From NCBI GenBank assembly GCA_905339405.1, contig CAJPGC010000007.1:27739-91738 (forward strand): 64,000 nt of DNA, in the 5' to 3' direction. A program made the position numbers and the translations under genes. Below are positions 5,714 to 52,354 of the stretch, one piece after another (position 1 is the first letter of the stretch; the number at the start of each line of letters is the position of its first letter). The stretch is from an uncultured bacterium. Its GTDB lineage: Bacteria > Desulfobacterota > GWC2-55-46. Below the pieces are notes generated by a model. That model was not told the origin of the DNA. It made no database searches and worked only from the letters and a program-made list of their open reading frames with translations.

Positions 5714-6847
5714 TTGACAGTGAAAATACCGACCGCGCTCGACCCGGAACTTTTCGCCACGGCGCTCGATACGCTGCCCTTCAAATATTACATAGTCGAT
5801 AAAGACCTGAACGTCCTTTTCTGGAACAGGAAAGGCGAGGAAGGCCCTTATGGCGTCAGGCAGGAAGACGCTGTCGGCAAGCATCTTGAAGCCGTTCTGG
5901 CAATAAACAGGGCGCACGTGAGCTCCCCGAAGCCGATACCCGAGATGGAGGCCGAGTTCAGGGAGGTCTTCGAAAAGGGGAGTATCATCTCCTCCGAGGA
6001 GTCTTCAGTACTCAAAAGCGGCGAGAAAAGATATTACAGGATAACGAAAACCCCTCTTCGCGGCGAAGACGGCGATGTTGCGCATACGGCCGTCATAATC
6101 GAGGACATCACGGACCAGAGAAGGCTTGAGTCGATGCTCATAGCCAAGGAGAAGCTTTTCGCCCTCGAGGACCTGGCTTCCGGTATCGCGCACCAGATAA
6201 ACAACCCCCTTTCAACGATGATGCTGTGCTCGGAATCGATGCTGAACGAGGTACGCAAGGGCGCGGTGTGCGACCCCGAGGCCGCGCTGAGGTTCGAGCA
6301 TTATCTTGAGATGACCTGCAAGCAGATTTCAAGGTGCAAGCAGGTCTCGAACATGCTGGTGGATTTCGGCAGCAACGAGGCCGGTAAAAAGGGCAGGACC
6401 GATGTGAACAAATTGCTCGGCGAGGCGGTTTCTCTCCTTAAATCGAGCAAAAGGTTCTCTGTCCCGTCAGTGGAAAAGGAGCTTTCAGCGGACATCCGGA
6501 CCATAACGGCAAGCGAGCCGCACTTGAGGCAGGTATTCTTGTCCATCCTTGTCAATGCCTTCGAAGCTGTGGACGGCAAGGCGGGCGGCGCAATAAGGGT
6601 TTCCACGTTCATGTCGGGCGAGGGGCAGAAAAAAGAAGTCGCCGTTGCCGTCCAGGACAACGGGAGCGGAATGGAGCGGGAAAAACTGCGCAGGATTTTC
6701 ACTCCGTTCTTTACGGCCAAAGGCGGCTCCCACGCGGGCCTTGGTCTTTCGGTTGCGCACCAGATAGTCTCCGGGCACGGCGGCAGGATAGAAGTCGAAT
6801 CAGAAGCCGGGAAGGGGAGCACGTTCACCGTGCTCCTCCCGTCCTGA
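5714..6847 (+). CDS. PAS-domain sensor histidine kinase
   Basis: PAS region, H-box (ASGIAHQINNPL) and HATPase_c motifs (DNGSGM, GGSHAGLGL). Confidence 0.8.
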   Translation: MTVKIPTALDPELFATALDTLPFKYYIVDKDLNVLFWNRKGEEGPYGVRQEDAVGKHLEAVLAINRAHVSSPKPIPEMEAEFREVFEKGSIISSEESSVLKSGEKRYYRITKTPLRGEDGDVAHTAVIIEDITDQRRLESMLIAKEKLFALEDLASGIAHQINNPLSTMMLCSESMLNEVRKGAVCDPEAALRFEHYLEMTCKQISRCKQVSNMLVDFGSNEAGKKGRTDVNKLLGEAVSLLKSSKRFSVPSVEKELSADIRTITASEPHLRQVFLSILVNAFEAVDGKAGGAIRVSTFMSGEGQKKEVAVAVQDNGSGMEREKLRRIFTPFFTAKGGSHAGLGLSVAHQIVSGHGGRIEVESEAGKGSTFTVLLPS

Positions 6848-6858
6848 CAGGCGAAAGC

Positions 6859-8211
6859 ATGGACTCTCAGAAGAGGAAAATAAGGGTATGCGTCATAGAT
6901 GACGAGGAGGCCCTTGTCGGCGTGCTCAAAGAGGAGCTGGCCAGGGAGGGCTTCGAAGTCGCCGCTGCCTTGAACGGTAGCGACGGCATAAAGCTCCTTG
7001 AGCACAAGCCCTTTGACGTCTGCCTACTCGACCTCAATATGCCGGGACTTAACGGCCTTGACGTGCTCGGCAAGGCCGCCCAGCAGGCTATCCCTACCGA
7101 GTTCATAGTCCTTACTGCTTGCGCCACTGTGCAGACGGCTGTCGAGTCCATAAGGCTCGGCGCGTACGATTACCTCACTAAGCCATGCAACCTGGACAGG
7201 ATAGTCTTCCTTATAAAAAAGGCACATGAGAAAAGGTGCATGCGCCAGGAGAGCCTGATACTGAAGCGCATGACCGAGGCAAGGGGCGCCAGGATAGCCA
7301 CGGCCAGCAAGGCGATGCTCCAGGTCATAAAAGAAGCCGAAAAAGTGGCCGGCACTGAGGCTCCTGTGCTCATACTCGGAGAAAGCGGGACAGGCAAGGA
7401 GGTCATGGCGGAGTTCATCCATGCCAATTCAAGCCGCTCCGAGGGGCCGTTTATCGTATTCAATTCGGCAGCCATACAGGAGAACCTTTTCGAGAGCGAG
7501 CTTTTCGGGTATGAAAAGGGCGCGTTCACCGGGGCCAACTCATCCAAGGAAGGGCTCTTCGAGCTGGCGGACGGAGGGACGCTGTTCCTTGACGAGATAG
7601 GCGAGGTCCCTCAGCAGATGCAGGCGAAGCTTCTGAGGGCCATAGAGAAAGGGACTTTCTACAAGGTCGGCGGCACGAAGGAGATACGCGTTGACATAAG
7701 GGTGCTGAGCGCGACGAACAAGGACCTGCCCGGGATGGCTAAGGGAAACGCGTTCAGGGATGACCTTTACTACAGGCTCAGCAGCATCACCCTGACGCTG
7801 CCGCCGCTGCGTGAAAGGAGGGAAGACATCAAGCCGATTGTCGAGGAACTGCTGGCGCGCCTCCCTGCCGGATACACAAAGAGCATCGATGATGCCGCGC
7901 TCGAGCTCATGGCAAGGCATGACTGGCCCGGCAACATAAGGGAGCTTCAAAACGTAGTCAACAGGGCTGCCATCCTTTCCGATTCAGACCGGATCGGGCC
8001 GGGAGACCTTCCGCCTGAGTTCAAGGACGGCCCCGTAAACCAGGCGCGTCCCGCCCAAAGCGGCGGACTGCTGTCTTTGTGCGACCTTGAAAGGGAGCAC
8101 ATAATAAGAGTCCTCGGCCACACGGCGGGGCAGAAGAAAAAGGCCGCCGGAATACTCGGAATAGACGTAAAGACCCTTTACCGCAAACTCAAGCAATACG
8201 GGATATCCTGA
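6859..8211 (+). CDS. Sigma-54-dependent response regulator (NtrC family: REC, AAA+, Fis HTH)
   Basis: REC domain; Walker A GESGTGKE; GAFTGA sigma-54 contact motif; C-terminal HTH. Confidence 0.85.
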   Translation: MDSQKRKIRVCVIDDEEALVGVLKEELAREGFEVAAALNGSDGIKLLEHKPFDVCLLDLNMPGLNGLDVLGKAAQQAIPTEFIVLTACATVQTAVESIRLGAYDYLTKPCNLDRIVFLIKKAHEKRCMRQESLILKRMTEARGARIATASKAMLQVIKEAEKVAGTEAPVLILGESGTGKEVMAEFIHANSSRSEGPFIVFNSAAIQENLFESELFGYEKGAFTGANSSKEGLFELADGGTLFLDEIGEVPQQMQAKLLRAIEKGTFYKVGGTKEIRVDIRVLSATNKDLPGMAKGNAFRDDLYYRLSSITLTLPPLRERREDIKPIVEELLARLPAGYTKSIDDAALELMARHDWPGNIRELQNVVNRAAILSDSDRIGPGDLPPEFKDGPVNQARPAQSGGLLSLCDLEREHIIRVLGHTAGQKKKAAGILGIDVKTLYRKLKQYGIS

Positions 8212-8239
8212 AGCCCGGGCTTCTCTCTTCCCCAGAGGT

Positions 8240-8268
8240 CATTATGCCATGCCGCGCGTCGCATAATG
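8240..8268 (+). promoter_or_regulatory. Inverted repeat, candidate enhancer (UAS) for the NtrC-like activator
   Basis: CATTATGC-N13-GCATAATG perfect 8-bp arms, about 60 nt upstream of the sigma-54 -24 element. Confidence 0.35.
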
Positions 8269-8324
8269 CCCTGCCGTAATCCTTCATAAAACAAAAAAGA
8301 TTGTAAAAACCGCTGGTTCTTCTC

Positions 8325-8339
8325 TGGCACGCCGTTTGC
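8325..8339 (+). promoter_or_regulatory. Sigma-54 (-24/-12) promoter
   Basis: TGGCAC-gccgt-TTGC exactly matches the TGGCAC-N5-TTGC(A/T) consensus, 16 nt upstream of the ATG at 8355. Confidence 0.55.
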
Positions 8340-8354
8340 GTTTGGGAAGTCACC

Positions 8355-8717
8355 ATGAGATTCCTTATCGTAGACGATGACCGCTACATGATGACCCTGG
8401 TCGCCTCCATCCTCAAGAAGCATAAGGTCGAGGTCGTAAGCCATTCAAACATAGGCGACGCGCTCCGGAACCTCATAGAAGAGGATTTCGACGGGGTGCT
8501 GCTGGACCTGCATCTGCCCGGCATGGACGGGCTCAGCGCAATCCCGCTCGCCAGGCAGATAAGGCCGGAGATAAACATAGGACTGATGACCGGAGATACG
8601 AGCCCGGAGGTGCGCGCGAGGGCCCTTACAGGCGGAGCCGACTTCTTTTTTCAAAAGCCCGCCGACCTGAATAACCTTTGGGAAGTCATCAGGGGCTGCA
8701 CGAGAAAGGAGAATTAG
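8355..8717 (+). CDS. Single-domain response regulator (CheY-like receiver)
   Basis: REC motifs (LIVDDD, phospho-acceptor D in VLLDLHLPGMDG, T/K downstream). Confidence 0.8.
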   Translation: MRFLIVDDDRYMMTLVASILKKHKVEVVSHSNIGDALRNLIEEDFDGVLLDLHLPGMDGLSAIPLARQIRPEINIGLMTGDTSPEVRARALTGGADFFFQKPADLNNLWEVIRGCTRKEN

Positions 8718-12123: not shown

Positions 12124-14181
12124 ATGGACCATGAAAACGACACGATAATGCTGACTGAAGAGGAGCTCGACGCCCTCAAGGAGACCTTTTACGCCCAGGC
12201 CCTTGAGATGAGCGAGGAGCTTACCGCGGAGATACTCTCGCTTGAAGCCAACGATTGCGCGGGCGAGCCGGTCAAACGCATAAAAAGGTACTTCCATACC
12301 TTAAAAGGCGATTCATCCTCCATAGGGCTCAAGGCCATCTCCGAGCTCATACACAGCGCCGAGGACTTGATGGCCGCCCTGGAGGACAGGAGTATCGCGC
12401 TGGACGGGGCCGTCTTGGAGGTTCTGCTGAAGTCCGTGGACGAGATTGAAAAGGCGATAAGCGCCGACCGCTTAGGCTCCAAGCACGAAATTCCCACACG
12501 CCTGAAAGAGGATATGGAGCAGCTGCTGGGGAAGGCGCGCGGGACCCCACGGCTTGCGATGACGGAATATGAAGAGCTCGTCCTTTCGACCAGCCTGGCG
12601 GAGGGCATGAAAATATATAGGCTCACGCTGGAGTTCTCCGGCGACTGCGTGATGAAGTCCGCCAGCGCGCTCCTTCTATTGCAGTACCTGTCCAGCGAGA
12701 TGGAGGCGATAAGGGTCAGCCCTTCACCCGAGGACCCGGCAATAGAGTCGGCCCGGTTCTTCGAATGCATCGCCGCGAGCAAGAGGCCCGCCCATGAGCT
12801 CAAAAAGCTCTGCCTGATACCGGGGGTGACTTCAAAGGCCGCGTGCGAGGAGCTCGACGCAGCTTCAATCGTAGCTTCTCCTGAAAAAGCCGGGACTGAA
12901 ACGCCCGTCGACAGCGTTGACAGGGGTCTTGACAAGGCGGCTCCGGCGACCATCAGGGTGCTTTCCGAGCGAGTCGACCAGATGATGGACCTCGTCGGCG
13001 AGCTCGTGATGGGCCGCTCCATGATAGAGGAGCTCGTCGGCAGGTTCGAGGCGCGCTACCCCAAGGACGAACTCGTGCACGGGTTTGTAAAGGCCAGGTC
13101 GTTCATCTCCCGCAGCTTGAGCGACCTTCAGAGGTCGGTCATGTCTATAAGGATGATACCCGTTGAGAAGGTCTTCAGGCGTTTCCCCAGGATGGTCAGG
13201 GACCTCAGCAATTCGAGCGGCAAGGAGATAAGCCTTCTTCTTAAGGGCGAGCGCACCGAGATAGACAAGGCGCTCGTCGACGTCATAGGCGAGCCCCTGC
13301 TGCACATCATAAGGAACGCCGTGGACCACGGGATGGAGACTTCCGCGGATAGGAAAAAAGCAGGCAAGCCTGCCGAGGGCACAATAACCGTAGAGGCATG
13401 CCACAGGGACAGCGAGATAGTCATACGGGTAGCGGACGACGGCAGGGGCATGGACGCGGGCAGGCTTAAGGAGAAGGCCGTGTCGATGGGGTATGTAAGC
13501 CCTGAGCAGGCTGGCGCAATGGAGGACAGCGAAGCCTTGCGTCTCATATTCATACCTGGTTTTTCAACAGCCGAAAAGGTGAGCGGCATCTCGGGGCGCG
13601 GCATAGGCATGGACATCGTAAAGGAGACCGTCGAAGGGATGAGGGGTTCGGTTTCGGTCGTCTCCTCACCTGGCAAGGGGACAGAGTTCACGCTCAGGTT
13701 CCCGCTTACGCTTTCGATAATGAGGGCCGTTCTCGTAAGGGCGGGAGGTACCATGTACGCGCTCCCGCTCGGTTCGGTCGCCGATATAAAGAGGGTCCGT
13801 CCCCATGACATAGATTCTCTGACCGGAATGGACGTGCTGAATTTGAAAGGCGGCCCGCTTCCCCTTACCGGCATAGACGGCCACGGTGCGGAAAACAGAG
13901 CCGGCCTCAGGCGCTCCAAGGCGTTCGTCCTTACCCTGAAACACGGGGGCAGGAAGGTCGGGCTCGTCGTGGACTCCCTCGCGGGCGAAGAAGAGCTCGT
14001 CGTAAAGGCTGTGGACGACGCGATTGTCTCCACGCCCCTGGTGAGCGGAGCGTCCATCCTCGGAAACGGAAAAGTCGTTTTGATATTGAATATAGGCGAG
14101 CTCATCTCCAGGACCCTCACAAACCCCGAATCGCTCGGATACAGGCGTTTTGAGCGCAAACCCACAGGTACAAATGGCTGA
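12124..14181 (+). CDS. cheA: Chemotaxis histidine kinase CheA
   Basis: HPt (YFHTLKGDS), dimerisation, HATPase and C-terminal CheW-like domains. Confidence 0.9.
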   Translation: MDHENDTIMLTEEELDALKETFYAQALEMSEELTAEILSLEANDCAGEPVKRIKRYFHTLKGDSSSIGLKAISELIHSAEDLMAALEDRSIALDGAVLEVLLKSVDEIEKAISADRLGSKHEIPTRLKEDMEQLLGKARGTPRLAMTEYEELVLSTSLAEGMKIYRLTLEFSGDCVMKSASALLLLQYLSSEMEAIRVSPSPEDPAIESARFFECIAASKRPAHELKKLCLIPGVTSKAACEELDAASIVASPEKAGTETPVDSVDRGLDKAAPATIRVLSERVDQMMDLVGELVMGRSMIEELVGRFEARYPKDELVHGFVKARSFISRSLSDLQRSVMSIRMIPVEKVFRRFPRMVRDLSNSSGKEISLLLKGERTEIDKALVDVIGEPLLHIIRNAVDHGMETSADRKKAGKPAEGTITVEACHRDSEIVIRVADDGRGMDAGRLKEKAVSMGYVSPEQAGAMEDSEALRLIFIPGFSTAEKVSGISGRGIGMDIVKETVEGMRGSVSVVSSPGKGTEFTLRFPLTLSIMRAVLVRAGGTMYALPLGSVADIKRVRPHDIDSLTGMDVLNLKGGPLPLTGIDGHGAENRAGLRRSKAFVLTLKHGGRKVGLVVDSLAGEEELVVKAVDDAIVSTPLVSGASILGNGKVVLILNIGELISRTLTNPESLGYRRFERKPTGTNG

Positions 14182-15271
14182 CCAGCGGAAGACTAAGGTA
14201 ATGGTCGTCGATGATTCTGCCCTGATGAGGCGGATGATACCCCTTATCCTGGAGAAAAGCCCGGAAATCGAGGTCGTGGCCACTGCGGTGGACGGAAGGT
14301 TCGCCCTGAGCAAGGCTGAAAAAAACAGGCCGGACGTCATCACCCTCGACATGGATATGCCAGGCATGGACGGCCTTACAACCTTGAAGCACATAGTGCG
14401 CGATTTCGGCATCCCGGTAGTTGTCGTAAGCTCCATGACGACCAGGGGGGCCGAGCTCACCATGAAGGCCTTTGAGCTCGGCGCGATGGACGTCATCGCT
14501 AAACCTGCCGACGCCATCTCGGTGAACATAAAAGAGATTGCCGAGGAACTTATTGAAAAGGTGCTCGCCATCGGCAGAAGCTCGGTCTCGAAGCTCCACC
14601 TCGATGTCCCTGCGGAAAAACTCCCTGAGCCGAGGCCGGCTGTCTGCTCAAGGGCAAAAACGGCCGAGCAGGTGATCGCGATCGGGATATCTACCGGTGG
14701 GCCCAACGCGCTCTCCTATATGCTGCCGCTCCTTCCGGCGGACCTTCCTGCTGCCGTGCTCGTGGTCCAGCACATGCCTGCCGGTTTTACTGAGGTGTTC
14801 GCTTCCCGCCTTAACAAGGCCTGCGCCCTCGAGGTCAGGGAAGCGCGGGACGGCGACCTTGTCACGCCGGGGCGGGTGCTGATAGCGCCGGGCGACTACC
14901 ACATGAAGATAAAGAAAACCGCCCTCAGCACAATCGTGGTCCTGAGCTCGCGCCCGGCTGTGAACGGCCACAGGCCTTCGGCCGACGTCCTCTTTAACTC
15001 CGTTGCCGCCGAGTACGGCCCGAGCTCGGTGGGCGTCATTATGACGGGAATGGGAGAGGACGGAGCCGAGGGGATAGGCGAGATAAAGAAGGCCGGCGGG
15101 CGTACCCTTGCGCAGGATGAAAACACCTCGGTAGTTTTCGGGATGCCAAAGGCCGCCATAAGAAGAGGGTATGTCGACAGGGTCATCCCGCTCGAGCGGA
15201 TGGCGGAGGCGGTTGCCGGCGAGATAACTTGGAAAAGAGGAGGACGGCAAATTGCGGCCAATCACAAGTGA
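14150..15271 (+). CDS. cheB: Chemotaxis methylesterase/deamidase CheB (REC + CheB_methylest)
   Basis: N-terminal REC and C-terminal methylesterase domain (GISTGGP, VVQHMPAGFT). In-frame alternative ATG at 14174 overlaps the cheA stop by 8 nt. Confidence 0.9.
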   Translation: MSANPQVQMADQRKTKVMVVDDSALMRRMIPLILEKSPEIEVVATAVDGRFALSKAEKNRPDVITLDMDMPGMDGLTTLKHIVRDFGIPVVVVSSMTTRGAELTMKAFELGAMDVIAKPADAISVNIKEIAEELIEKVLAIGRSSVSKLHLDVPAEKLPEPRPAVCSRAKTAEQVIAIGISTGGPNALSYMLPLLPADLPAAVLVVQHMPAGFTEVFASRLNKACALEVREARDGDLVTPGRVLIAPGDYHMKIKKTALSTIVVLSSRPAVNGHRPSADVLFNSVAAEYGPSSVGVIMTGMGEDGAEGIGEIKKAGGRTLAQDENTSVVFGMPKAAIRRGYVDRVIPLERMAEAVAGEITWKRGGRQIAANHK

Positions 15272-15653
15272 AGTAGATAAAAGCGCGTACAGTTTCCTGA
15301 TAGTCGACGATTCTCTTTTCGCGAGGAAAAACATCGCCAAGGCGGTCGAAGCCATAGGCGGCAACGTGGTCGGGGAGGCCGTGAACGGAAGGGAAGCCGT
15401 AGAGAAGTACTTTGAGCTCAGGCCTGACCTCGTGCTCATGGACATCTCGATGCCGGAGATGGAAGGCATCGAGGCGCTCGGGCTCATCAGGGAGCGCGAC
15501 AGCTCGGCCAAGGTCGTCATTGTGAGCTCGCTGGGCCATCAGGAGATGGTCAAGAAGGGGATATCCCTCGGCGCGAAACACTTCATCTCAAAACCCGTGG
15601 TGCTCGAGAAGGCGGCGGACATCATCAAATTCGTGTTGGCGCAGAAAGGCTGA
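15252..15653 (+). CDS. cheY: CheY-like response regulator
   Basis: REC domain (FLIVDDS, VLMDISMPEMEG, SKP). Confidence 0.8.
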   Translation: MRPITSEVDKSAYSFLIVDDSLFARKNIAKAVEAIGGNVVGEAVNGREAVEKYFELRPDLVLMDISMPEMEGIEALGLIRERDSSAKVVIVSSLGHQEMVKKGISLGAKHFISKPVVLEKAADIIKFVLAQKG

Positions 15654-18312: not shown

Positions 18313-19182
18313 ATGAGCCTTCCGGAAAGAAGACCAGAGAGTCAGGAAAGCCCGGTAGAGCGGGAAAGCCGTCAGGGCGCACCGCGTTCCACAAAGGGCG
18401 TCGAGATGGTGACGATGCTCAAGAAGGGCCTCGAGTACACACAGGACCTCCTCAAGGAGAACGAATGGCTGAGGCAGACCGCCATCAAGCTTCAGGAGCA
18501 GAACCGGCTTCTTCAGGCAAGGGTCAAGGACCCTTGCCCCGGCGCTGACTCCGCCGAGTTGATGGAGAGGCTCAAGTCCTCGCAGCAGGAGAAGGCCGGG
18601 CTCGAGGAGCGGACAAAAGAGCTGGAGAGGGAAAACCAGGAGTTCGCCAACCGCTATGTCGAGATTGAAGAGCAGAACCAGATGCTCACCAACCTGTATA
18701 CGGCCAGTTTTCAGCTTCATTCATCCCTCGACTACAACGAAGTGCTCAGAGGAGTCACCGAGATAATCATAAACCTCATAGGCGCGGAGAGGTTCGCGGT
18801 CATGCTGCTCGACGAGAAATCCCTTGTCCTCACGGCGGTAGCGGCCGAGGGGATGGAGATGGAGGAAGTGCTTCCTGTCAAGGTGGGTGAAGGCGCCGTA
18901 GGCGCGGCGGTCTCTTCCGGAGAGGTCTTTTACGGCAGCGGTGAAGCCTCCGGCGGGAGCCCTCTGGTCTGCCTGCCGCTCAAAATAGGGGAGAAGGTCA
19001 TAGGCGTCATCGTCATCTACGACCTCCTCAGGCAGAAAGAAAAGTTCACGGAAATCGATTACGAGCTCTTCTCGATGCTTGGAGACCATACCGCTACCGC
19101 TCTGTTCAGCGCGAAGCTTTACACCGAGTCGGAGAGAAGGCTGTCGACCATACAGGGGTTCATAGACCTTATTACCAAGTAG
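18313..19182 (+). CDS. Coiled-coil / GAF-domain protein
   Basis: Long heptad-rich coiled coil followed by a GAF-like region (FAVMLLDEKSLVL...GVIVIYD). Possible alternative start at MVTMLKKG. Confidence 0.6.
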   Translation: MSLPERRPESQESPVERESRQGAPRSTKGVEMVTMLKKGLEYTQDLLKENEWLRQTAIKLQEQNRLLQARVKDPCPGADSAELMERLKSSQQEKAGLEERTKELERENQEFANRYVEIEEQNQMLTNLYTASFQLHSSLDYNEVLRGVTEIIINLIGAERFAVMLLDEKSLVLTAVAAEGMEMEEVLPVKVGEGAVGAAVSSGEVFYGSGEASGGSPLVCLPLKIGEKVIGVIVIYDLLRQKEKFTEIDYELFSMLGDHTATALFSAKLYTESERRLSTIQGFIDLITK

Positions 19183-19186
19183 GAGA

Positions 19187-19576
19187 ATGAAAATGAGTGA
19201 TTACCGCGTGCTTGTCGTTGAAGATTCTCCGACAATGTCGCAGCTTCTCAAGTTCACGCTCAGGAGGATAAAGGGGCTCGAGGTGGTGACGGCTAGCGAC
19301 GGGGTGGACGGGCTTAAAAAACTGGCCAATGCCAAATACGACCTAGTGCTCACGGACATAAACATGCCCCTCATGGACGGGCTCAAGCTCATAGGGCTTG
19401 TGAGGGGGGACGGCAACGGGACGAACAAGAGCGTTCCCATTGTGATAATTACGACCGAAGGGGAGGACGACGCCCGCAGGGAGGGGCTCGCGCTCGGCGC
19501 TACGTCATATATAACCAAGCCCATAAATTCGCGCGAGGTTATCGATACCGTGATGAAATGCCTCGGGGCCGCATAG
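19187..19576 (+). CDS. Single-domain response regulator
   Basis: REC motifs (VLVVEDSPT, LVLTDINMPLMDG, TKP). RBS ggagaatgaaaATG. Confidence 0.85.
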   Translation: MKMSDYRVLVVEDSPTMSQLLKFTLRRIKGLEVVTASDGVDGLKKLANAKYDLVLTDINMPLMDGLKLIGLVRGDGNGTNKSVPIVIITTEGEDDARREGLALGATSYITKPINSREVIDTVMKCLGAA

Positions 19577-47335: not shown

Positions 47336-47356
47336 AGGGTAACGTTTGTTACCCTA
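47335..47356 (+). promoter_or_regulatory. Palindromic operator (candidate LexA/SOS box) overlapping the lexA start codon
   Basis: TAGGGTAAC-GTTT-GTTACCCTA: perfect 9-bp inverted arms, located between the -10 element and the ATG. Confidence 0.45.
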
Positions 47357-47967
47357 TGAAGCCGCTTACCACAAGACAAAAGGAAATACTCGTTTTTTTA
47401 CGCGAGTTTATAAGCGAAAGCGGATACCCGCCCTCACTGAGGGACATCTGCGCCCGCTTCGGCATAAGCGGCCCCAAGAACGCGGCAAAGCACCTCGACG
47501 CCCTCGAAAAAAAGGGCTTCATAAGGAGGAGGGCCGCCTCGTCGAGGGCAATAGAGCTTCTCGGGCCATCCCCGCTGGGAGGCGTGCCAATTCCCATAGC
47601 GGGAAGGGTGAGGGCGGGCTCCCCTGAACCAGCTGTCGAGGACATAACAGGCCACGTGGTGCTCGATGAGAGCTTCTTCAGGTGCTCCGGGGCTTTTGTC
47701 CTGAAGGTCGTGGGCGAGAGCATGACAGGGGCCGGGATAAACGACGGGGATTTCGTCGTCGTCAGGCCCCAGCCTGAGGCCGCGCCCGGCGACATTGTCG
47801 TGGCCCTCCTGGACGGCGAGGCCACTGTGAAGACCTTCCTGCGCGACGGGGACGAGGTCGTATTGAGGCCCGAAAACCCGGCGATGAAGCCTATAAGGGT
47901 TACCGGGACGGAGGACTTCGCAATTGCCGGCAAGGTCGTGTCGGTCATAAGGCGGATTGGGAAATAG
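47356..47967 (+). CDS. lexA: LexA repressor (S24 peptidase)
   Basis: N-terminal winged HTH, AG cleavage site (IAGRVRAG), Ser/Lys dyad (GESMTGAGI ... KTF). Confidence 0.9.
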   Translation: MKPLTTRQKEILVFLREFISESGYPPSLRDICARFGISGPKNAAKHLDALEKKGFIRRRAASSRAIELLGPSPLGGVPIPIAGRVRAGSPEPAVEDITGHVVLDESFFRCSGAFVLKVVGESMTGAGINDGDFVVVRPQPEAAPGDIVVALLDGEATVKTFLRDGDEVVLRPENPAMKPIRVTGTEDFAIAGKVVSVIRRIGK

Positions 47968-47986
47968 TTTAAGGAATTTAAAGAGT

Positions 47987-48223
47987 ATGGCTGAAAGCAT
48001 AAAGGAAGAGATAAAGGTCGTGGCCGTCTTCGACAGGGGCTTGAAGCCGGTCAAGTTCCGTTGGCGCGGGCGTCTTTACATCATAACGGAGGTGACCCAC
48101 ACCTGGTCTTCGAGGCATGGGGCTTCCGGCATACTCCACTACGCGGTCACTGACGGGGCCACGCTTTTCGAGCTGGCCTACAACCAGTCGACGATGAGAT
48201 GGTCGATAGAGGCGTCCGAGTGA
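47987..48223 (+). CDS. Small hypothetical protein within the SOS operon
   Basis: 78-88 aa ORF between lexA and dinB; its stop overlaps the dinB GTG (GTGA). Confidence 0.4.
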   Translation: MAESIKEEIKVVAVFDRGLKPVKFRWRGRLYIITEVTHTWSSRHGASGILHYAVTDGATLFELAYNQSTMRWSIEASE

Positions 48224-49452
48224 AGCTCATAATGCACGTCGACATGAACGCCTTTTTCGCCTCCGTCGAGCAGAGGTGCGACCCGGCCCTTCGCGGCAAG
48301 CCCATAGCCGTCGTCGGCTCGGCCAAGAGGACGGTGGTGACGACCGCCTCCTACGAGGCGAGGAAGCTGGGCGTCAAGACCGGAATGAACAAGTTCGAGG
48401 CAAAGAAGGCCTGCCCGTCGCTCATTCTCGTCATCGGCGACAACAGGAAGTACATAGACGCCTCGGTGCGCATACTGGAGATATTGAAGTCCTTCTCCCC
48501 GAAGGTCGAGGCATATTCCATCGACGAGGCGTTCCTCGACATAACGGGCTGCCTTAAGCCCTTCGGCTCGCCGGAGGCACTGGCAAGGGCCGTGAAGGAG
48601 AGGATAAGGGAAGGGGTCGGCCTTACCTGCTCCATCGGCATAGCGCCTAATAAGCTCCTGGCAAAGCTCGCCTCCGACATGCAGAAGCCGGACGGCTTGG
48701 TAATAATAGATGAGGCCGGGAAAGCGAAGCTGCTGGAGGACCTCCCGGTGGGCGAGCTCTGGGGCATAGGCCCGAGGCTCACCGAGCACCTCGGCAGGTT
48801 GGGAGTGAAGACCTGCGGCCAGCTCGGCAGGTTCCCGGCAAGCGTGCTGCGCGAGAGGTTCGGCATAATAGGCGAGAGATTGAGGCTCATGGGCCAGGGC
48901 GTCTATTCGAGCGAGGTAGTGCCGATAGGGCAGGAGGAAGAGGCCAAGAGCGTCGGCCACTCCACGACTCTGCCTGCCGATACGTCCGAGAAAGCGGAGA
49001 TCAAAAGGTATCTCCTGAAGCTCTCCGAGATGGTTGGCGCGAGGGCGAGGGAGCATTGCCTCAAGGGCGGCAAAGTATGTCTCACAATAAGGTACCCTGA
49101 TTTTTATACCTTCTCGCGACAGAGAACGCTACCCGTCCACACGAACGACACCCGGGCCATATATGCCTCGGCCCTGGCCATACTGGAGTCGATGAGGCTC
49201 AGGACGGCCGTCAGGCTCCTGGGCGTTTCGATATCCGCTCTCGCGAAGGGCAGCGGCCAGATGGCCCTTTTCGAGGAGGACAGACGGCGCGAGAAGCTCC
49301 TCGAGGCTATGGACGAGGTCAACAGGTCTTTCGGCGAGTACACCGTCACCTGGGGGACTCTCCTGGACGAGGGGGGCGGAAGCGAGGACGATACCGGGGT
49401 GATATCCCCGGCGTGGAGGCCTGTCGGTGTAAAAAGGGTCAACGTGAAATGA
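48220..49452 (+). CDS. dinB: DNA polymerase IV (Y-family)
   Basis: Y-family motifs (IMHVDMNAFFASVE, SIDEAFLD). Residues VKLIMH align with E. coli DinB MRKIIH, supporting a GTG start at 48220. The listed ORF start 48199 and an ATG at 48232 are alternatives. Confidence 0.85.
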   Translation: MKLIMHVDMNAFFASVEQRCDPALRGKPIAVVGSAKRTVVTTASYEARKLGVKTGMNKFEAKKACPSLILVIGDNRKYIDASVRILEILKSFSPKVEAYSIDEAFLDITGCLKPFGSPEALARAVKERIREGVGLTCSIGIAPNKLLAKLASDMQKPDGLVIIDEAGKAKLLEDLPVGELWGIGPRLTEHLGRLGVKTCGQLGRFPASVLRERFGIIGERLRLMGQGVYSSEVVPIGQEEEAKSVGHSTTLPADTSEKAEIKRYLLKLSEMVGARAREHCLKGGKVCLTIRYPDFYTFSRQRTLPVHTNDTRAIYASALAILESMRLRTAVRLLGVSISALAKGSGQMALFEEDRRREKLLEAMDEVNRSFGEYTVTWGTLLDEGGGSEDDTGVISPAWRPVGVKRVNVK

Positions 49453-49512
49453 CGCCCCCTCATCCCTCAAGTGTAAAGTTCTTTTTCTATTTTCTTTTTT
49501 TCCGTAAAGAAT

Positions 49513-49540
49513 TTGACAACGGTTCGAACCCTGCTAAAGT
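49513..49540 (+). promoter_or_regulatory. Putative sigma-70 promoter of a possible small RNA
   Basis: TTGACA-16 nt-TAAAGT in an AT-rich stretch; a strong terminator lies about 45 nt downstream. Confidence 0.25.
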
Positions 49541-49584
49541 CCTTATCAAGGCTAATCGGTCGCAGATGCCTTTTAACCCCCTTT

Positions 49585-49620
49585 GCCGGGAGCGTGCCCT
49601 CGCTCCCGGCAGTTTTTTAT
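49585..49620 (+). terminator. Strong rho-independent terminator
   Basis: Perfect 10-bp stem gccgggagcg/cgctcccggc with a 6-nt loop, followed by a T6 run. Confidence 0.7.
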
Positions 49621-49938
49621 TTCAGGGCCCGATATTTTTATAACCCTTCATTTTTTCAGCTGATTTCTTAATTCCTCTAAAATTTAAAGCCTGGTCTAAT
49701 CTTTCCTTAATCTTTCATATGTAAAATGGTTATCGAAACCTGGGGTACTCCTTTCCACAAGTTAAAGCGATGTTCCCCTGAATGCGCCCGGAAGCCCATG
49801 ACTGCCTTCCGGGCGTATTTAATTTCAGGCTGTCCGGATATCACCGGCCTTTTTTCTTTGTTGGCCGCCTTAATACCCTCTTAATCTCTCTTGCGTATAA
49901 TGGGAGGCGTAAAGAACGCATCCATCAAGGAGGAGCCC

Positions 49939-50031
49939 ATGACAAAGATAAAAGACAATCTTCTCGAGGTGACGATAAACCTTGTCATAGCGCTTGCTGT
50001 CTTGTCGACCGTCGCCAAGGTCACTCTTTGA
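49939..50031 (+). CDS. Small hydrophobic peptide (30 aa, single predicted TM helix)
   Basis: Strong RBS aaggagga 5 nt upstream of the ATG. Product MTKIKDNLLEVTINLVIALAVLSTVAKVTL. Confidence 0.35.
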   Translation: MTKIKDNLLEVTINLVIALAVLSTVAKVTL

Positions 50032-50257
50032 CTCTTAAGATACCGCGGCATCCATTCCGCCGCTCATCAGGCTCTCCGGCCACTTCACCCCTCTGACTCC
50101 GCCAAATGACCGCCGCCCAGCTCCCTCACCTGATGCCAGGGAGGCCGTAAACCGGCCTCCCGGCGCGCTTTCAGAGGGCCAGTGACCGGGCTCACCGCTC
50201 GAAGAGGCCCCCGGGTGTTAATCTTCGCGCATGAAACGGGGAGGGCCCCGGGGAGGG

Positions 50258-50446
50258 ATGAATATGCGTTACAGAAATACAGGCGGTTCAGGCTGCGGAG
50301 ATTCTGAGAAGGGCACAAGGGCAAATTGCCCGAAAGCGCGCGCCGAAGGTGGATGGCGTTTACTGAAGCGCGACCCTGGAGCCATCCTGGAAGTGCTCCT
50401 GAACATAGCGGTCGTGCTGGTGCTCGTCATAACCATAACCGTTTGA
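50258..50446 (+). CDS. Small protein with Gly/Arg-rich N-terminus and C-terminal TM helix (62 aa)
   Basis: RBS ggggaggg before the ATG; C-terminus GAILEVLLNIAVVLVLVITITV is paralogous to the two neighbouring peptides. Listed ORF 50231..50446 (alternative start). Confidence 0.3.
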   Translation: MNMRYRNTGGSGCGDSEKGTRANCPKARAEGGWRLLKRDPGAILEVLLNIAVVLVLVITITV

Positions 50447-50518
50447 GCAGTGGAAAGGGGCTTTGAGACGGCCGGACGGAACAGGCGTCCTTCCATCAAG
50501 CTACAAGGAGAACTGATC

Positions 50519-50605
50519 ATGAAGACCACAAGAACCGGCGAGATATTGGCGCTCCTTGCGGCTGTGCTCCTCCTCATTGCGGCAATATCCTCCAACCTCA
50601 TCTGA
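50519..50605 (+). CDS. Small hydrophobic peptide (28 aa, single predicted TM helix)
   Basis: RBS aaggaga 7 nt upstream of the ATG. Product MKTTRTGEILALLAAVLLLIAAISSNLI. Confidence 0.35.
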   Translation: MKTTRTGEILALLAAVLLLIAAISSNLI

Positions 50606-50752
50606 ACCTGACCGCAAGACCCCGAAATCCGTCTTCGCGCTCCATCTTTACCCGGCCCTCGGAAAGGGATTTTTTTCTCCCCAACCCGCCTCCTTTTATG
50701 CTATATTGACAAATTAGCAAAACACAAGGCGCACTTAAGGAGAAGAAGTAAA

Positions 50753-52354
50753 TTGGAAAGTAAGGAAAAGAAGAGTTTCGCTGATTTCGGGCTGTCCGGC
50801 GACATGCTCAAATCCATCCTCTCGATGGGTTTCGAAGAGCCCACTCCCATACAGGCCAGGACAATACCGGTGCTCCTCACCGGAAAGGACGTCATCGGCC
50901 AGGCGCAGACTGGCACCGGCAAGACGGCGGCCTTCGGCATACCAGTAATAGAGAAGGTCGACAGGCAGGTGAACGCGGTGCAGGCGATAGTGCTCGCCCC
51001 CACGAGGGAGCTTGCCATGCAGGCGGCCGAGGAGATGAACAAGCTAGGAAAGCACAAGAGGATACACGCCCTGCCTGTATACGGCGGCACGTCCATTGAA
51101 AGGCAGATAAAGGCGCTCGTCAAGGGCGTGCAGGTGGTGGTGGGCACCCCGGGCAGGGTCCTCGACCACATAGAGAGAAAGACGCTTTCGCTCAAGGAAG
51201 TAAAGATGGTTGTCCTCGACGAGGCCGACGAGATGCTGGACATGGGCTTCGTGGAAGACATTACGAAGATATTGAAGACCACGCCCGAGACGAGGCAGAC
51301 CCTTCTTTTTTCGGCGACCATGCCGGAAGAGATACTGAAGATATCCAAGCGCCACATGAAAAACCCCGAGCGCATACGCATAGCCACCGACACGCTCACT
51401 GCCCCGAAGATAAGCCAGATAGTCTACGAAGTGCGCAACGCCGACAAGCTCGACGCCCTGTGCCGCCTCATCGACTTCGGCTCCGAAGGCACTTACCTCA
51501 TATTCTGCCACACCAAGAGGGAAGTCGACGAGGTCTCGCAGCACCTGCGCCTGCGCGGGTATGAGGCCGACGCGATGCACGGCGACTACACGCAGGCCCA
51601 GAGGGAAGCGGTGCTCAAAAAGTTCCGCGACGGCAGGGTCGACGTCCTGGTCGCGACCGACGTCGCCGCAAGGGGCCTGGACATAAGCAGCATCTCCCAC
51701 GTCGTCAACTACTCGATACCCCAGAACCCGGAATCTTACGTGCACAGGATAGGCCGTACCGGAAGGGCTGGAAGGGAAGGCGTGGCCATAACGTTCGTCA
51801 CCCCGAGGGAAGACAGGCAGCTCCGCCTCATACAGTCGGTCGCAAAGGCCCAGATTAAAAGGGGCAAGCTCCCGAGCAGGGAAGAGGTCCTGGGAGCCAG
51901 GCTTACCGGCCTCGAGGAGAAGATGAACGAGTTCATCGACGACAAGCGCTTCGACAAGTTCATGACGCTCGCCGAGAGGGTCTCCGAGAAGATGGACCCG
52001 AAGGAAGCTCTGGCCGCTCTCCTGAAGTTCCAGCTCGAGGGCTTTGACAAGCCGGCCGAGCAGCAGGAGGAAGCCTCTCTCAACGATACCGGGGCCTCCC
52101 CCGGCATGGCCCGCCTCTTCCTTACGATAGGCAAGGAGCAGGGCGTGAGGGTAAACGACATAGTCGACGCGATATCGAGGAGGGCCGAGATCCCCAAGCA
52201 GTTCATCAAGGGCGTGGCCATATTCGAGACCTTCACCTTCGTCGAGGTCCCCAGGGATTCGGCTGAGAAGATAATAGAGATGGTGCACCGTTCCATCATC
52301 TCGGGCAGGAAGGTCGCCGTTGCCCCGGCGAAGCCGAAGGTGGCGAGAAGGTAA
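50753..52354 (+). CDS. deaD: DEAD-box ATP-dependent RNA helicase (DeaD/CsdA-like, with C-terminal DbpA-type RNA-binding domain)
   Basis: Q motif, AQTGTGKT, DEAD, SAT, HRIGRTGRAG motifs; C-terminal extension. Confidence 0.9.
   Translation: MESKEKKSFADFGLSGDMLKSILSMGFEEPTPIQARTIPVLLTGKDVIGQAQTGTGKTAAFGIPVIEKVDRQVNAVQAIVLAPTRELAMQAAEEMNKLGKHKRIHALPVYGGTSIERQIKALVKGVQVVVGTPGRVLDHIERKTLSLKEVKMVVLDEADEMLDMGFVEDITKILKTTPETRQTLLFSATMPEEILKISKRHMKNPERIRIATDTLTAPKISQIVYEVRNADKLDALCRLIDFGSEGTYLIFCHTKREVDEVSQHLRLRGYEADAMHGDYTQAQREAVLKKFRDGRVDVLVATDVAARGLDISSISHVVNYSIPQNPESYVHRIGRTGRAGREGVAITFVTPREDRQLRLIQSVAKAQIKRGKLPSREEVLGARLTGLEEKMNEFIDDKRFDKFMTLAERVSEKMDPKEALAALLKFQLEGFDKPAEQQEEASLNDTGASPGMARLFLTIGKEQGVRVNDIVDAISRRAEIPKQFIKGVAIFETFTFVEVPRDSAEKIIEMVHRSIISGRKVAVAPAKPKVARR

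Follow-up and report, generated by a model that had tools for sequence, protein, structure and literature searches.

Why does the DNA between dinB and deaD in an uncultured member of the Thermodesulfobacteriota hold three very short open reading frames (ORFs), and what do they make? The question concerns a spacer of 1300 nt (49453-50752) within a 64-kb stretch of DNA, the whole of which is called the window here. The preliminary description of this DNA named the two flanking genes correctly, gave the spacer as about 1.2 kb, and saw in it a low-GC island encoding three paralogous hydrophobic peptides of the kind found in SOS-induced type I toxins, with small membrane regulators as an alternative. 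It is the alternative that the evidence favours. The three ORFs, p1, p2 and p3, are genuine coding genes under protein-level purifying selection, and we tentatively read their products, with a confidence slightly below the halfway mark, as lineage-specific single-pass membrane proteins that would act through helix-helix contacts, with a response regulator of the OmpR/PhoB type switching on p1, at least, and a conserved small RNA by way of a direct repeat that resembles the pmra-box.

Coding status and design of p1, p2 and p3

All three genes lie on the plus strand, at the positions first proposed for them, and their helices match the sequences quoted there exactly. p1 (49939-50031) specifies 30 residues, MTKIKDNLLEVTINLVIALAVLSTVAKVTL, behind the Shine-Dalgarno (SD) sequence AAGGAGG; p2 (50264-50446, with alternative ATGs at 50231 and 50258) specifies 60 residues ending in ...PGAILEVLLNIAVVLVLVITITV behind GGAGGG; and p3 (50519-50605) specifies 28 residues, MKTTRTGEILALLAAVLLLIAAISSNLI, behind AAGGAG. 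The SDs are strong and well spaced, each of the three peptides has one hydrophobic helix, and their Kyte-Doolittle hydropathy averaged over 17 residues comes to 2.1-3.0.

The variable columns of p1 are distributed over the first, second and third codon positions as 12/6/23 and those of p3 as 18/13/26, and the ratio of nonsynonymous to synonymous change (pN/pS) is 0.29 in frame against 0.98 and 1.84 off frame for p1, and 0.42 against 0.98 and 1.45 for p3. This bias towards the third position, found only in the annotated frame, identifies p1 and p3 as coding; the p2 helix shows the same pattern of substitution, with a pN/pS of 0.3-0.6 for the tail, obtained from the pN and pS values. The preliminary description had allowed that conservation might be confined to the nucleotides; it is the reading frames that are conserved, with off-frame ratios of ~1-1.8. 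The longer ORF 49782-50096, dismissed there as spurious, is so indeed, since it overlaps both a near-invariant RNA-like element and p1, and is broken by frame-shifting indels in the relatives.

The peptides share a design in which a basic N-terminus is followed by a near-universal Glu or Asp, often by an Asn four residues on, and then by about 20 hydrophobic residues, and polar residues within the helix are invariant. Among 10 orthologues, p1 retains K5, D6, E10, N14, S23, T24 and K27 without exception, and the invariant residues of p3 are M1, K2, T4, E8, A11, A15 and A21. p2 joins a variable basic N-terminal part, which carries in-frame indels in the relatives, to a conserved C-terminal helix (...D-x5-EV-x-LNIAVVLVLVI); its SD, ATG and helix are all conserved. 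The proposed paralogy of the three peptides holds for p1 and p2, which are related by hhalign (P = 1.2e-4 over 18 columns), but not for p1 and p3, where profile comparison does not support a common ancestry and p3 shares the architecture alone (basic N-terminus, Glu, helix).

In the public record p1 appears as a 43-residue protein (CAG1064960.1; window 49900-50031) whose ATG lies inside the -10 box of the gene itself, and this extension is broken by a 4-nt indel in one relative (L081), so that the 30-residue form is likely the actual product. p2 is identical to CAG1064961.1, a hypothetical protein of 60 residues. p3 is uncalled in the NCBI record; a record from JGI alone has it, with an additional Met. 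A 2.99-Mb contig in JGI/GEM carries an identical p3, and the reads SRR34449294, SRR25397369 and SRR25321296 contain the locus as DNA. The overlong call of p1 and the omission of p3 are small-ORF annotation errors.

Conservation and range of the family

Relatives were gathered in three ways, via DinB, via DeaD and via orthologues of the peptides, and seven distinct ones have either a DeaD ~92% identical or orthologous peptides: L081 (= L082 = L084), L083, L100, L101, L102, L103 and the group L096-L099, which is identical to the window over the compared stretches. The order lexA-DUF6504-dinB-spacer-deaD with p1, p2 and p3 is kept in all seven, with a 26-residue peptide in place of p2 in L100 and an additional peptide of 20-25 residues between p2 and p3 in L081, L101 and L103; the arrays thus hold 3 to 4 peptide genes. 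The extra peptide of 20-26 residues is of the MKEQGIWDVIANVAVMVAIVAAVII type (L081 4593-4670; L101 3151-3228; L103 3262-3324; L100 2612-2692).

Further out, L004, L005, L006 and L007 (DinB ~70% identical) have no alignable spacer DNA and carry the same kind of peptide in the same place. Four peptides stand directly upstream of deaD in L004 and L006, and three in L007 (for example, MIRTMKRSSGLFEIMATFAILALVLLISMIII); in L004 three of them follow one another with gaps of 18 and 10 nt, an operon-like arrangement. L005 has two peptide units downstream of dinB, and no deaD was found within ~5 kb. A profile hidden Markov model (HMM) built from the L004 and L007 peptides alone placed p3 of the window first and p1 second among 1467 six-frame fragments, with weak E-values of 0.1 and 0.2 but at the expected positions. 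A filter for an SD plus hydrophobicity found no peptides upstream of deaD in L009 and L086-L093, where DeaD identity is 63-80%.

None of the Pfam, NCBIfam or PHROG models matches p1, p2 or p3, and up to E 10 Pfam and NCBIfam return unrelated noise only. Among 5.8 billion proteins a word-seeded search picked out 36, all of them orthologues from the same clade that are named hypothetical. HMMER, run exhaustively over 1.84 billion representatives, returned 13 matches at E <= 1e-3, two of which are spurious repeats; the others come only from the same uncultured Deltaproteobacteria/Thermodesulfobacteriota clade, and all are hypothetical. Judged by these searches, the peptide family is new and lineage-restricted. 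Within the clade the paralogues form separate orthologue groups, each of them retained, and this speaks for peptides with distinct roles and against recent duplicates.

Promoters and a putative response-regulator site

The p1 promoter (49869-49901, plus strand) consists of a perfect direct repeat, CTTAAT-N5-CTTAAT (49869-49885), a 10-nt spacer and the -10 box TATAAT (49896-49901), the full string being CTTAAT-ACCCT-CTTAAT, 10 nt, TATAAT-GG (49869-49903). The candidate promoter of a small RNA, termed small RNA 2 here, lies 174 nt upstream on the same strand (49695-49727) and is built alike, from TCTAAT-N5-CTTAAT (49695-49711), a 10-nt spacer, the -10 box TAAAAT (49722-49727) and then GG (in full TCTAAT-CTTTC-CTTAAT, 10 nt, TAAAAT-GG, 49695-49729); its counterpart in L081 is 94.6% identical over 37 nt. 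Both promoters have a good -10 box and no -35 hexamer, in the place of which stands the direct repeat, yTAAT-N6-yTAAT, with a periodicity of 11 bp, 10 nt upstream of TAnAAT and at about -39 to -23 when the -10 box is set at -12 to -7.

The composite of repeat and -10 box has two matches in the 64-kb window, both in the spacer, against 0.00 expected from shuffled sequence. With the motif relaxed, matches in ~1 Mb of fetched loci scanned on both strands fall only at peptide or RNA units and always on the plus strand. The p1-type architecture is present in L083 and L081; the relaxed scan finds promoters of this type at the head of peptide units in L004, L005 and L006, and by eye they can be recognized at both units of L007 and at the extra peptide of L081, which thus has a repeat-type promoter of its own.

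In the pmra-box, two XTTAAY hexamers 5 nt apart take the place of the -35 element or overlap it, and they are the binding site of a PmrA dimer, PmrA being a regulator of the OmpR/PhoB family; compared with the pmra-box, PhoB boxes are shifted upstream by four base pairs (PMC10570014). The p1 box, CTTAAT-N5-CTTAAT, satisfies the published formula XTTAAY-N5-XTTAAY (PMC10570014), and by analogy the promoters of p1 and small RNA 2 may operate as pmra-box promoters do.

In the window the repeat-type promoter stands before p1 and small RNA 2, and not before p2 or p3. An aligned block of columns upstream of p2 contains what may be the -10 element of a p2-p3 transcript (TGTTAAT, 50216-50222, plus strand), which reads TACAAT in L081, L101 and L103 (CTGCC[AC]-17-TACAAT) and TAAAAT in L083, and which in the window has no direct repeat upstream. 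p3 starts 72 nt past p2, and no promoter is visible between them.

Candidate small RNAs and the p1 3' UTR

Candidate small RNA 2 (49734-49828, plus strand, ~95 nt, with a putative 5' end set from sequence) comprises a hairpin, GGGG...CCCC, with the invariant CUCCUUUCCACA, followed by a 14-bp terminator. No other stretch of the spacer is so well conserved, its identity being 84-95% against 69-77% for the p1 unit, and its predicted fold has a z-score of -4.26; paired bases show no covariation, so the fold is a prediction only. The anti-SD-like CUCCUUUCCACA resembles the 3' end of 16S rRNA, and CUCCUUUCC in this RNA is invariant. In three relatives the 5' end of the element carries an additional hairpin of 42 nt. 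With a covariance model of the 49741-49828 core, matches came from the clade of the window only, and none from the peptide-bearing L004, L006 and L007; possible targets of the invariant loop, sought across the window, did not exceed chance.

Further upstream lies candidate small RNA 1 (49547-49620, plus strand, ~70 nt, its 5' end likewise predicted), with a 5' hairpin, the single-stranded C-rich UUAACCCCCUUU and a 12-bp terminator with a U-run that may also end the dinB transcript. Its predicted fold has a z-score of -4.25, and it is 84-89% identical at the nucleotide level in six relatives and absent from L100. The promoter in front of it (49513-49540, plus strand) is of the sigma-70 type, TTGACA-16-TAAAGT preceded by TG (TTGACA-16-TGCTAAAGT); it was the sole promoter match of the consensus scan, at 10/12, and is near-invariant in the relatives, where its flanks vary. 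A search of 49000-51200 against Rfam at E up to 10 returned sub-threshold noise only (Acido-1 on the dinB terminator; mmgR at E = 1.1).

The 3' untranslated region (UTR) of p1 ends (50118-50174, plus strand) in a CU-rich tract, GCUCCCUCACCU (50120-50131), a hairpin, GGGAGGCCG/CGGCCUCCC (50139-50161), and then GCGCUUU, which together probably form the p1 terminator. The hairpin is conserved in all relatives. The CU-rich tract occupies the same position, just 5' of the terminator, in L081, L083, L100, L102 and L103 as well, and the remainder of the ~110-nt UTR is poorly conserved.

How the peptides may act

Under the favoured reading, the spacer would encode an array of small single-pass inner-membrane proteins, p1, p2 and p3, joined by a fourth in some relatives. 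An OmpR/PhoB-type regulator would turn on p1 and small RNA 2 through the yTAAT repeat, and p2 and p3 would be transcribed from a separate and plainer promoter. By the positive-inside rule the peptides would insert with the N-terminus in and the C-terminus out, and the polar face of the helix (E10, N14, S23 and T24 in p1) would pack against a larger membrane protein, or against other peptides of the array, and modulate it, in the way that PmrR, MgrB, MgtS and YoaI do. The invariance of polar residues in the helices points to such contacts indirectly.

There is precedent for small membrane proteins induced by two-component systems in PmrR, MgrB, MgtS and YoaI (PMC11429745). The closest parallel drawn here is to PmrR, the 29-residue, PmrA-activated peptide of Salmonella and E. 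coli: like it and like MgrB, MgtS and YoaI, which are stress-induced membrane regulators, the peptides have about 30 residues and one transmembrane helix, and as at PmrR a pair of tandem hexamers with an 11-bp offset stands in the promoter where the -35 element would be. They differ in showing no sequence similarity, in coming from another phylum (uncultured Thermodesulfobacteriota/Deltaproteobacteria), and in that 3-4 divergent peptides stand in an array together with a small RNA that is predicted to be co-regulated.

A more specific proposal, which we consider improbable, is that one regulator induces both p1 and small RNA 2 as an anti-SD mimic (through CUCCUUUCC), the RNA damping SD-dependent translation of the peptides. 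Such a module would be undescribed and, if true, would place membrane peptides that may be harmful under an incoherent feed-forward control, antitoxin-like in effect, with no need for gene-specific antisense pairing.

Some observations weigh against regulated membrane proteins as the explanation. The repeat is a putative regulator site, and the transcript ends are predicted from the DNA alone, with starts placed near 49547, 49734, 49908 and about 50226, those of small RNA 2 and p1 being some 7 nt past the -10 boxes. No gene for an OmpR-family regulator was found in the 64-kb window, where a PhoB probe gave receiver-only matches; CheY-like receiver-domain ORFs lie at 6442-8714, 14096-15650 and 19166-19573, none with an OmpR-type winged-helix output domain. 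Searches with Pfam, NCBIfam and HMMER found no homology to PmrR, MgrB, MgtS or any described small protein. In addition, the small size, the hydrophobicity, the tandem copies, the narrow range and the adjacent small RNAs would fit type I toxins as well.

Alternative explanations

A type I toxin-antitoxin-like module, in which the peptides would depolarize the membrane and their synthesis would be held down by RNA, is an alternative that we regard as unlikely. When the defining features of type I toxins are taken from PMC8309996, the peptides present several of them: no more than 60 residues, a single hydrophobic helix, tandem copies and a very narrow taxonomic range, which are the traits used to find toxins of the ZorO type (PMC8309996), and two conserved small-RNA-like elements directly adjoin them. 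None of the three peptides, however, matches a known toxin family (TisB, DinQ, Hok, Ldr, Ibs, Fst and others) in Pfam, NCBIfam or PHROGs. The repressing RNA could take three forms. For an undetected antisense RNA, the consensus scan gave no minus-strand promoter or terminator in the spacer, such scans being weak for excluding an antisense transcript. A looser scan gave one minus-strand match at 50367-50402 (ATGACG-17-TATGTT, 8/12), which lies inside the helix-coding stretch of p2, recurs in L081, L083, L102 and L103 and, present in five genomes, is the sole candidate start for an antisense RNA over the start of p2, such a transcript beginning near 50395; it is of background quality and probably conserved merely through the conservation of the codons. 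Small RNA 2, for its part, bears the anti-SD-like sequence in invariant form, but it is missing from peptide-bearing L004, L006 and L007, it has the inducible type of promoter of p1 and so would not be constitutive, and the duplexes that small RNAs 1 and 2 can form with the start regions of p1, p2 and p3 are no better than those of shuffled sequences (17-75 of 100 shuffles were as good). As for folding of the p1 3' UTR onto its own SD, pairing of the SD with the CU-rich tract is predicted in 6/7 relatives (0.89-1.00), but dinucleotide-shuffled tails give a mean of 0.83-0.92; with this control the statistical support for sequestration is gone, and what stands is the observation that the tract keeps a fixed position.

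Among known systems, TisB/IstR-1 and DinQ/AgrB, the SOS-induced type I toxin-antitoxin pairs of E. coli, resemble the locus in their 27-30-residue single-helix inner-membrane peptides with charged or polar residues in the helix, their intergenic position and their adjacent small RNA genes. Unlike it, tisB and dinQ have LexA boxes and divergent small RNAs with which they share ~20 nt of complementarity; the spacer has neither a LexA box nor complementarity above chance, the adjacent RNA runs in the same direction and is predicted to be co-regulated with p1, and homology is absent. ZorO/OrzO, Ldr and Ibs share the tandem small hydrophobic ORFs and the narrow distribution, but their copies are near-identical, and each comes with an antisense RNA and has its ribosome-binding site masked by the 5' UTR, whereas the copies described here are old, divergent and in places operon-like, and sequence scans found no antisense partner. 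The strong, exposed-looking SDs, the operon-like spacing in L004, the promoter type shared by p1 and the small RNA, and the old paralogues, each conserved individually, fit regulated membrane proteins better than type I toxins.

The proximity of the SOS genes raises a different possibility, namely that the peptides are SOS-induced membrane effectors, either toxins of the TisB/DinQ kind or division inhibitors of the SidA type, reached by read-through from lexA-dinB or through a LexA box of their own. In the clade of the window they do lie directly downstream of lexA-DUF6504-dinB and on the same strand. The LexA box of the clade, GGGTAAC-N4-GTTACCC, was derived by aligning eight lexA promoters, where it closely follows the -10 element; the 64-kb window has a single perfect site, at the lexA promoter (47338-47353), and the spacer contains no site with three or fewer mismatches, the total of loose matches in the window equalling chance expectation. 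L007 has two copies of the operator. Because the spacer has no LexA box, SOS control of the peptides is unlikely. In addition, a strong terminator with 12 bp and a U-run follows dinB (49583-49620), and the peptide units carry promoters of their own and of a different type. The relatives are also informative, since L004, L006 and L007 have 2.7-3.0 kb between dinB and the peptides (in L004 with a 448-residue ORF) and L103 has a gene for a PEP-CTERM protein there. Where deaD is present the peptides stay directly upstream of it, so they travel with the upstream region of deaD and not with the SOS operon. SOS-induced effectors are accordingly among the least probable explanations considered. For the SOS-induced type I toxin of the preliminary description, the SOS component is thus unsupported, and the toxin component is weakened and unproven.

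A further possibility is that the peptides are leader ORFs in a long 5' leader of deaD, whose translation would tune expression of the helicase in the manner of yrbN, a 26-residue ORF in the deaD leader of E. coli (10.1101/2021.03.08.434349). Wherever a relative has both an array and deaD, the two are directly adjacent, with the array upstream, and in the clade of the window folding finds no stable hairpin, and hence no stable terminator, in the DNA from p3 to deaD, so that some read-through from p2-p3 into deaD is possible. The T7 run at 50670-50676 was considered as a p3-deaD terminator and rejected: folding gives it no stable stem, and it lies in the -35/UP region of the deaD promoter, as part of which it is better read. 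That promoter, an extended -10 element downstream of p3 (50699-50707, plus strand, TGCTATATT), is conserved in the window, L083, L100, L101 and L102 and belongs to deaD itself; in L004 and L007 clear terminators part the array from deaD; L005 has peptide units and, as noted, no deaD was found within ~5 kb; and selection covers whole transmembrane helices rather than a few regulatory codons. The likeness to YrbN lies in a small ORF just upstream of a DEAD-box helicase gene (deaD/csdA in E. coli). There, however, yrbN sits inside the deaD 5' UTR and overlaps the deaD start by 8 nt, whereas the transmembrane peptides have their own promoters and lie at least 147 nt from deaD, p3 ending 147 nt upstream. 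yrbN is thus a positional analogue only, and a leader function is very doubtful; on the favoured reading the SOS operon on the upstream side and deaD on the downstream side would simply flank the peptides and not regulate them.

Hardly any weight can be given to exported peptides, whether a leaderless multi-peptide bacteriocin or surfactants like those of the tandem psm-alpha genes. Several short, related peptides in tandem, each with an SD, would suit such a role, but no transporter, immunity or modification genes adjoin the locus, the helices are uniformly hydrophobic and membrane-spanning instead of cationic and amphipathic, a leader motif is lacking, and the locus is on the chromosome, with synteny kept across the clade. 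Also rejected were PEP-CTERM anchors and signal peptides of the type IV pilin or Flp-like kind, since neither the Gly/Glu spacing nor the order of parts fits.

Base composition, flanking genes and repeats

The flanking genes were assigned from Pfam as LexA (47356-47967), the Y-family polymerase DinB (48199-49452) and DeaD, a DEAD-box helicase with a DbpA domain (50753-52354). Between lexA and dinB lies an ORF of the DUF6504 family (~78-88 residues; window 47957-48223), the end of which overlaps the start of dinB if the 417-residue start is used; the relatives annotate dinB at 406 residues. The lexA-DUF6504-dinB cassette is kept across all close relatives.

AT-rich DNA does exist in the spacer, but in one part only, at ~49480-49930 (GC 0.43-0.44); the stretch 49950-50400 has a GC content of 0.61-0.63, matching the flanks. 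Because the AT-richness is confined in this way, it can be put down to ordinary DNA of promoters and small RNAs, and there is no low-GC island that carries the peptides.

A short exact repeat (D13, AGCCCATGAC, two copies) and an inverted repeat (I3) were set aside as chance, neither being kept in L081/L083. In more distant relatives the DNA after dinB is crowded with REP-like, GC-rich short palindromes (GGGGAGGGTAGGGTGGGGGTGA, CCTCCCCTTAGCAAGGAG; L001 7257-7361, L003 7218-7373, L004 3750-4140, L005 2860-3000 and L006 7245-7400), and two distant-relative contigs stop ~100-150 nt past dinB, which suggests repeats that break the assembly.

Significance

Small membrane proteins are badly under-annotated, and outside the enterobacteria and Firmicutes hardly any is known to have a regulator or target assigned to it. 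The locus corrects the annotation, p1 being overlong in the public record and p3 usually missed, and it cautions that a hydrophobic mini-ORF beside an SOS operon is insufficient to call an SOS-induced type I toxin. For one uncultured lineage of the Thermodesulfobacteriota it provides an evolution-validated set of 3-4 peptide genes, a sharp promoter motif and two conserved small-RNA candidates; the motif should identify the regulator and its regulon, and both regulator and circuit are directly testable.

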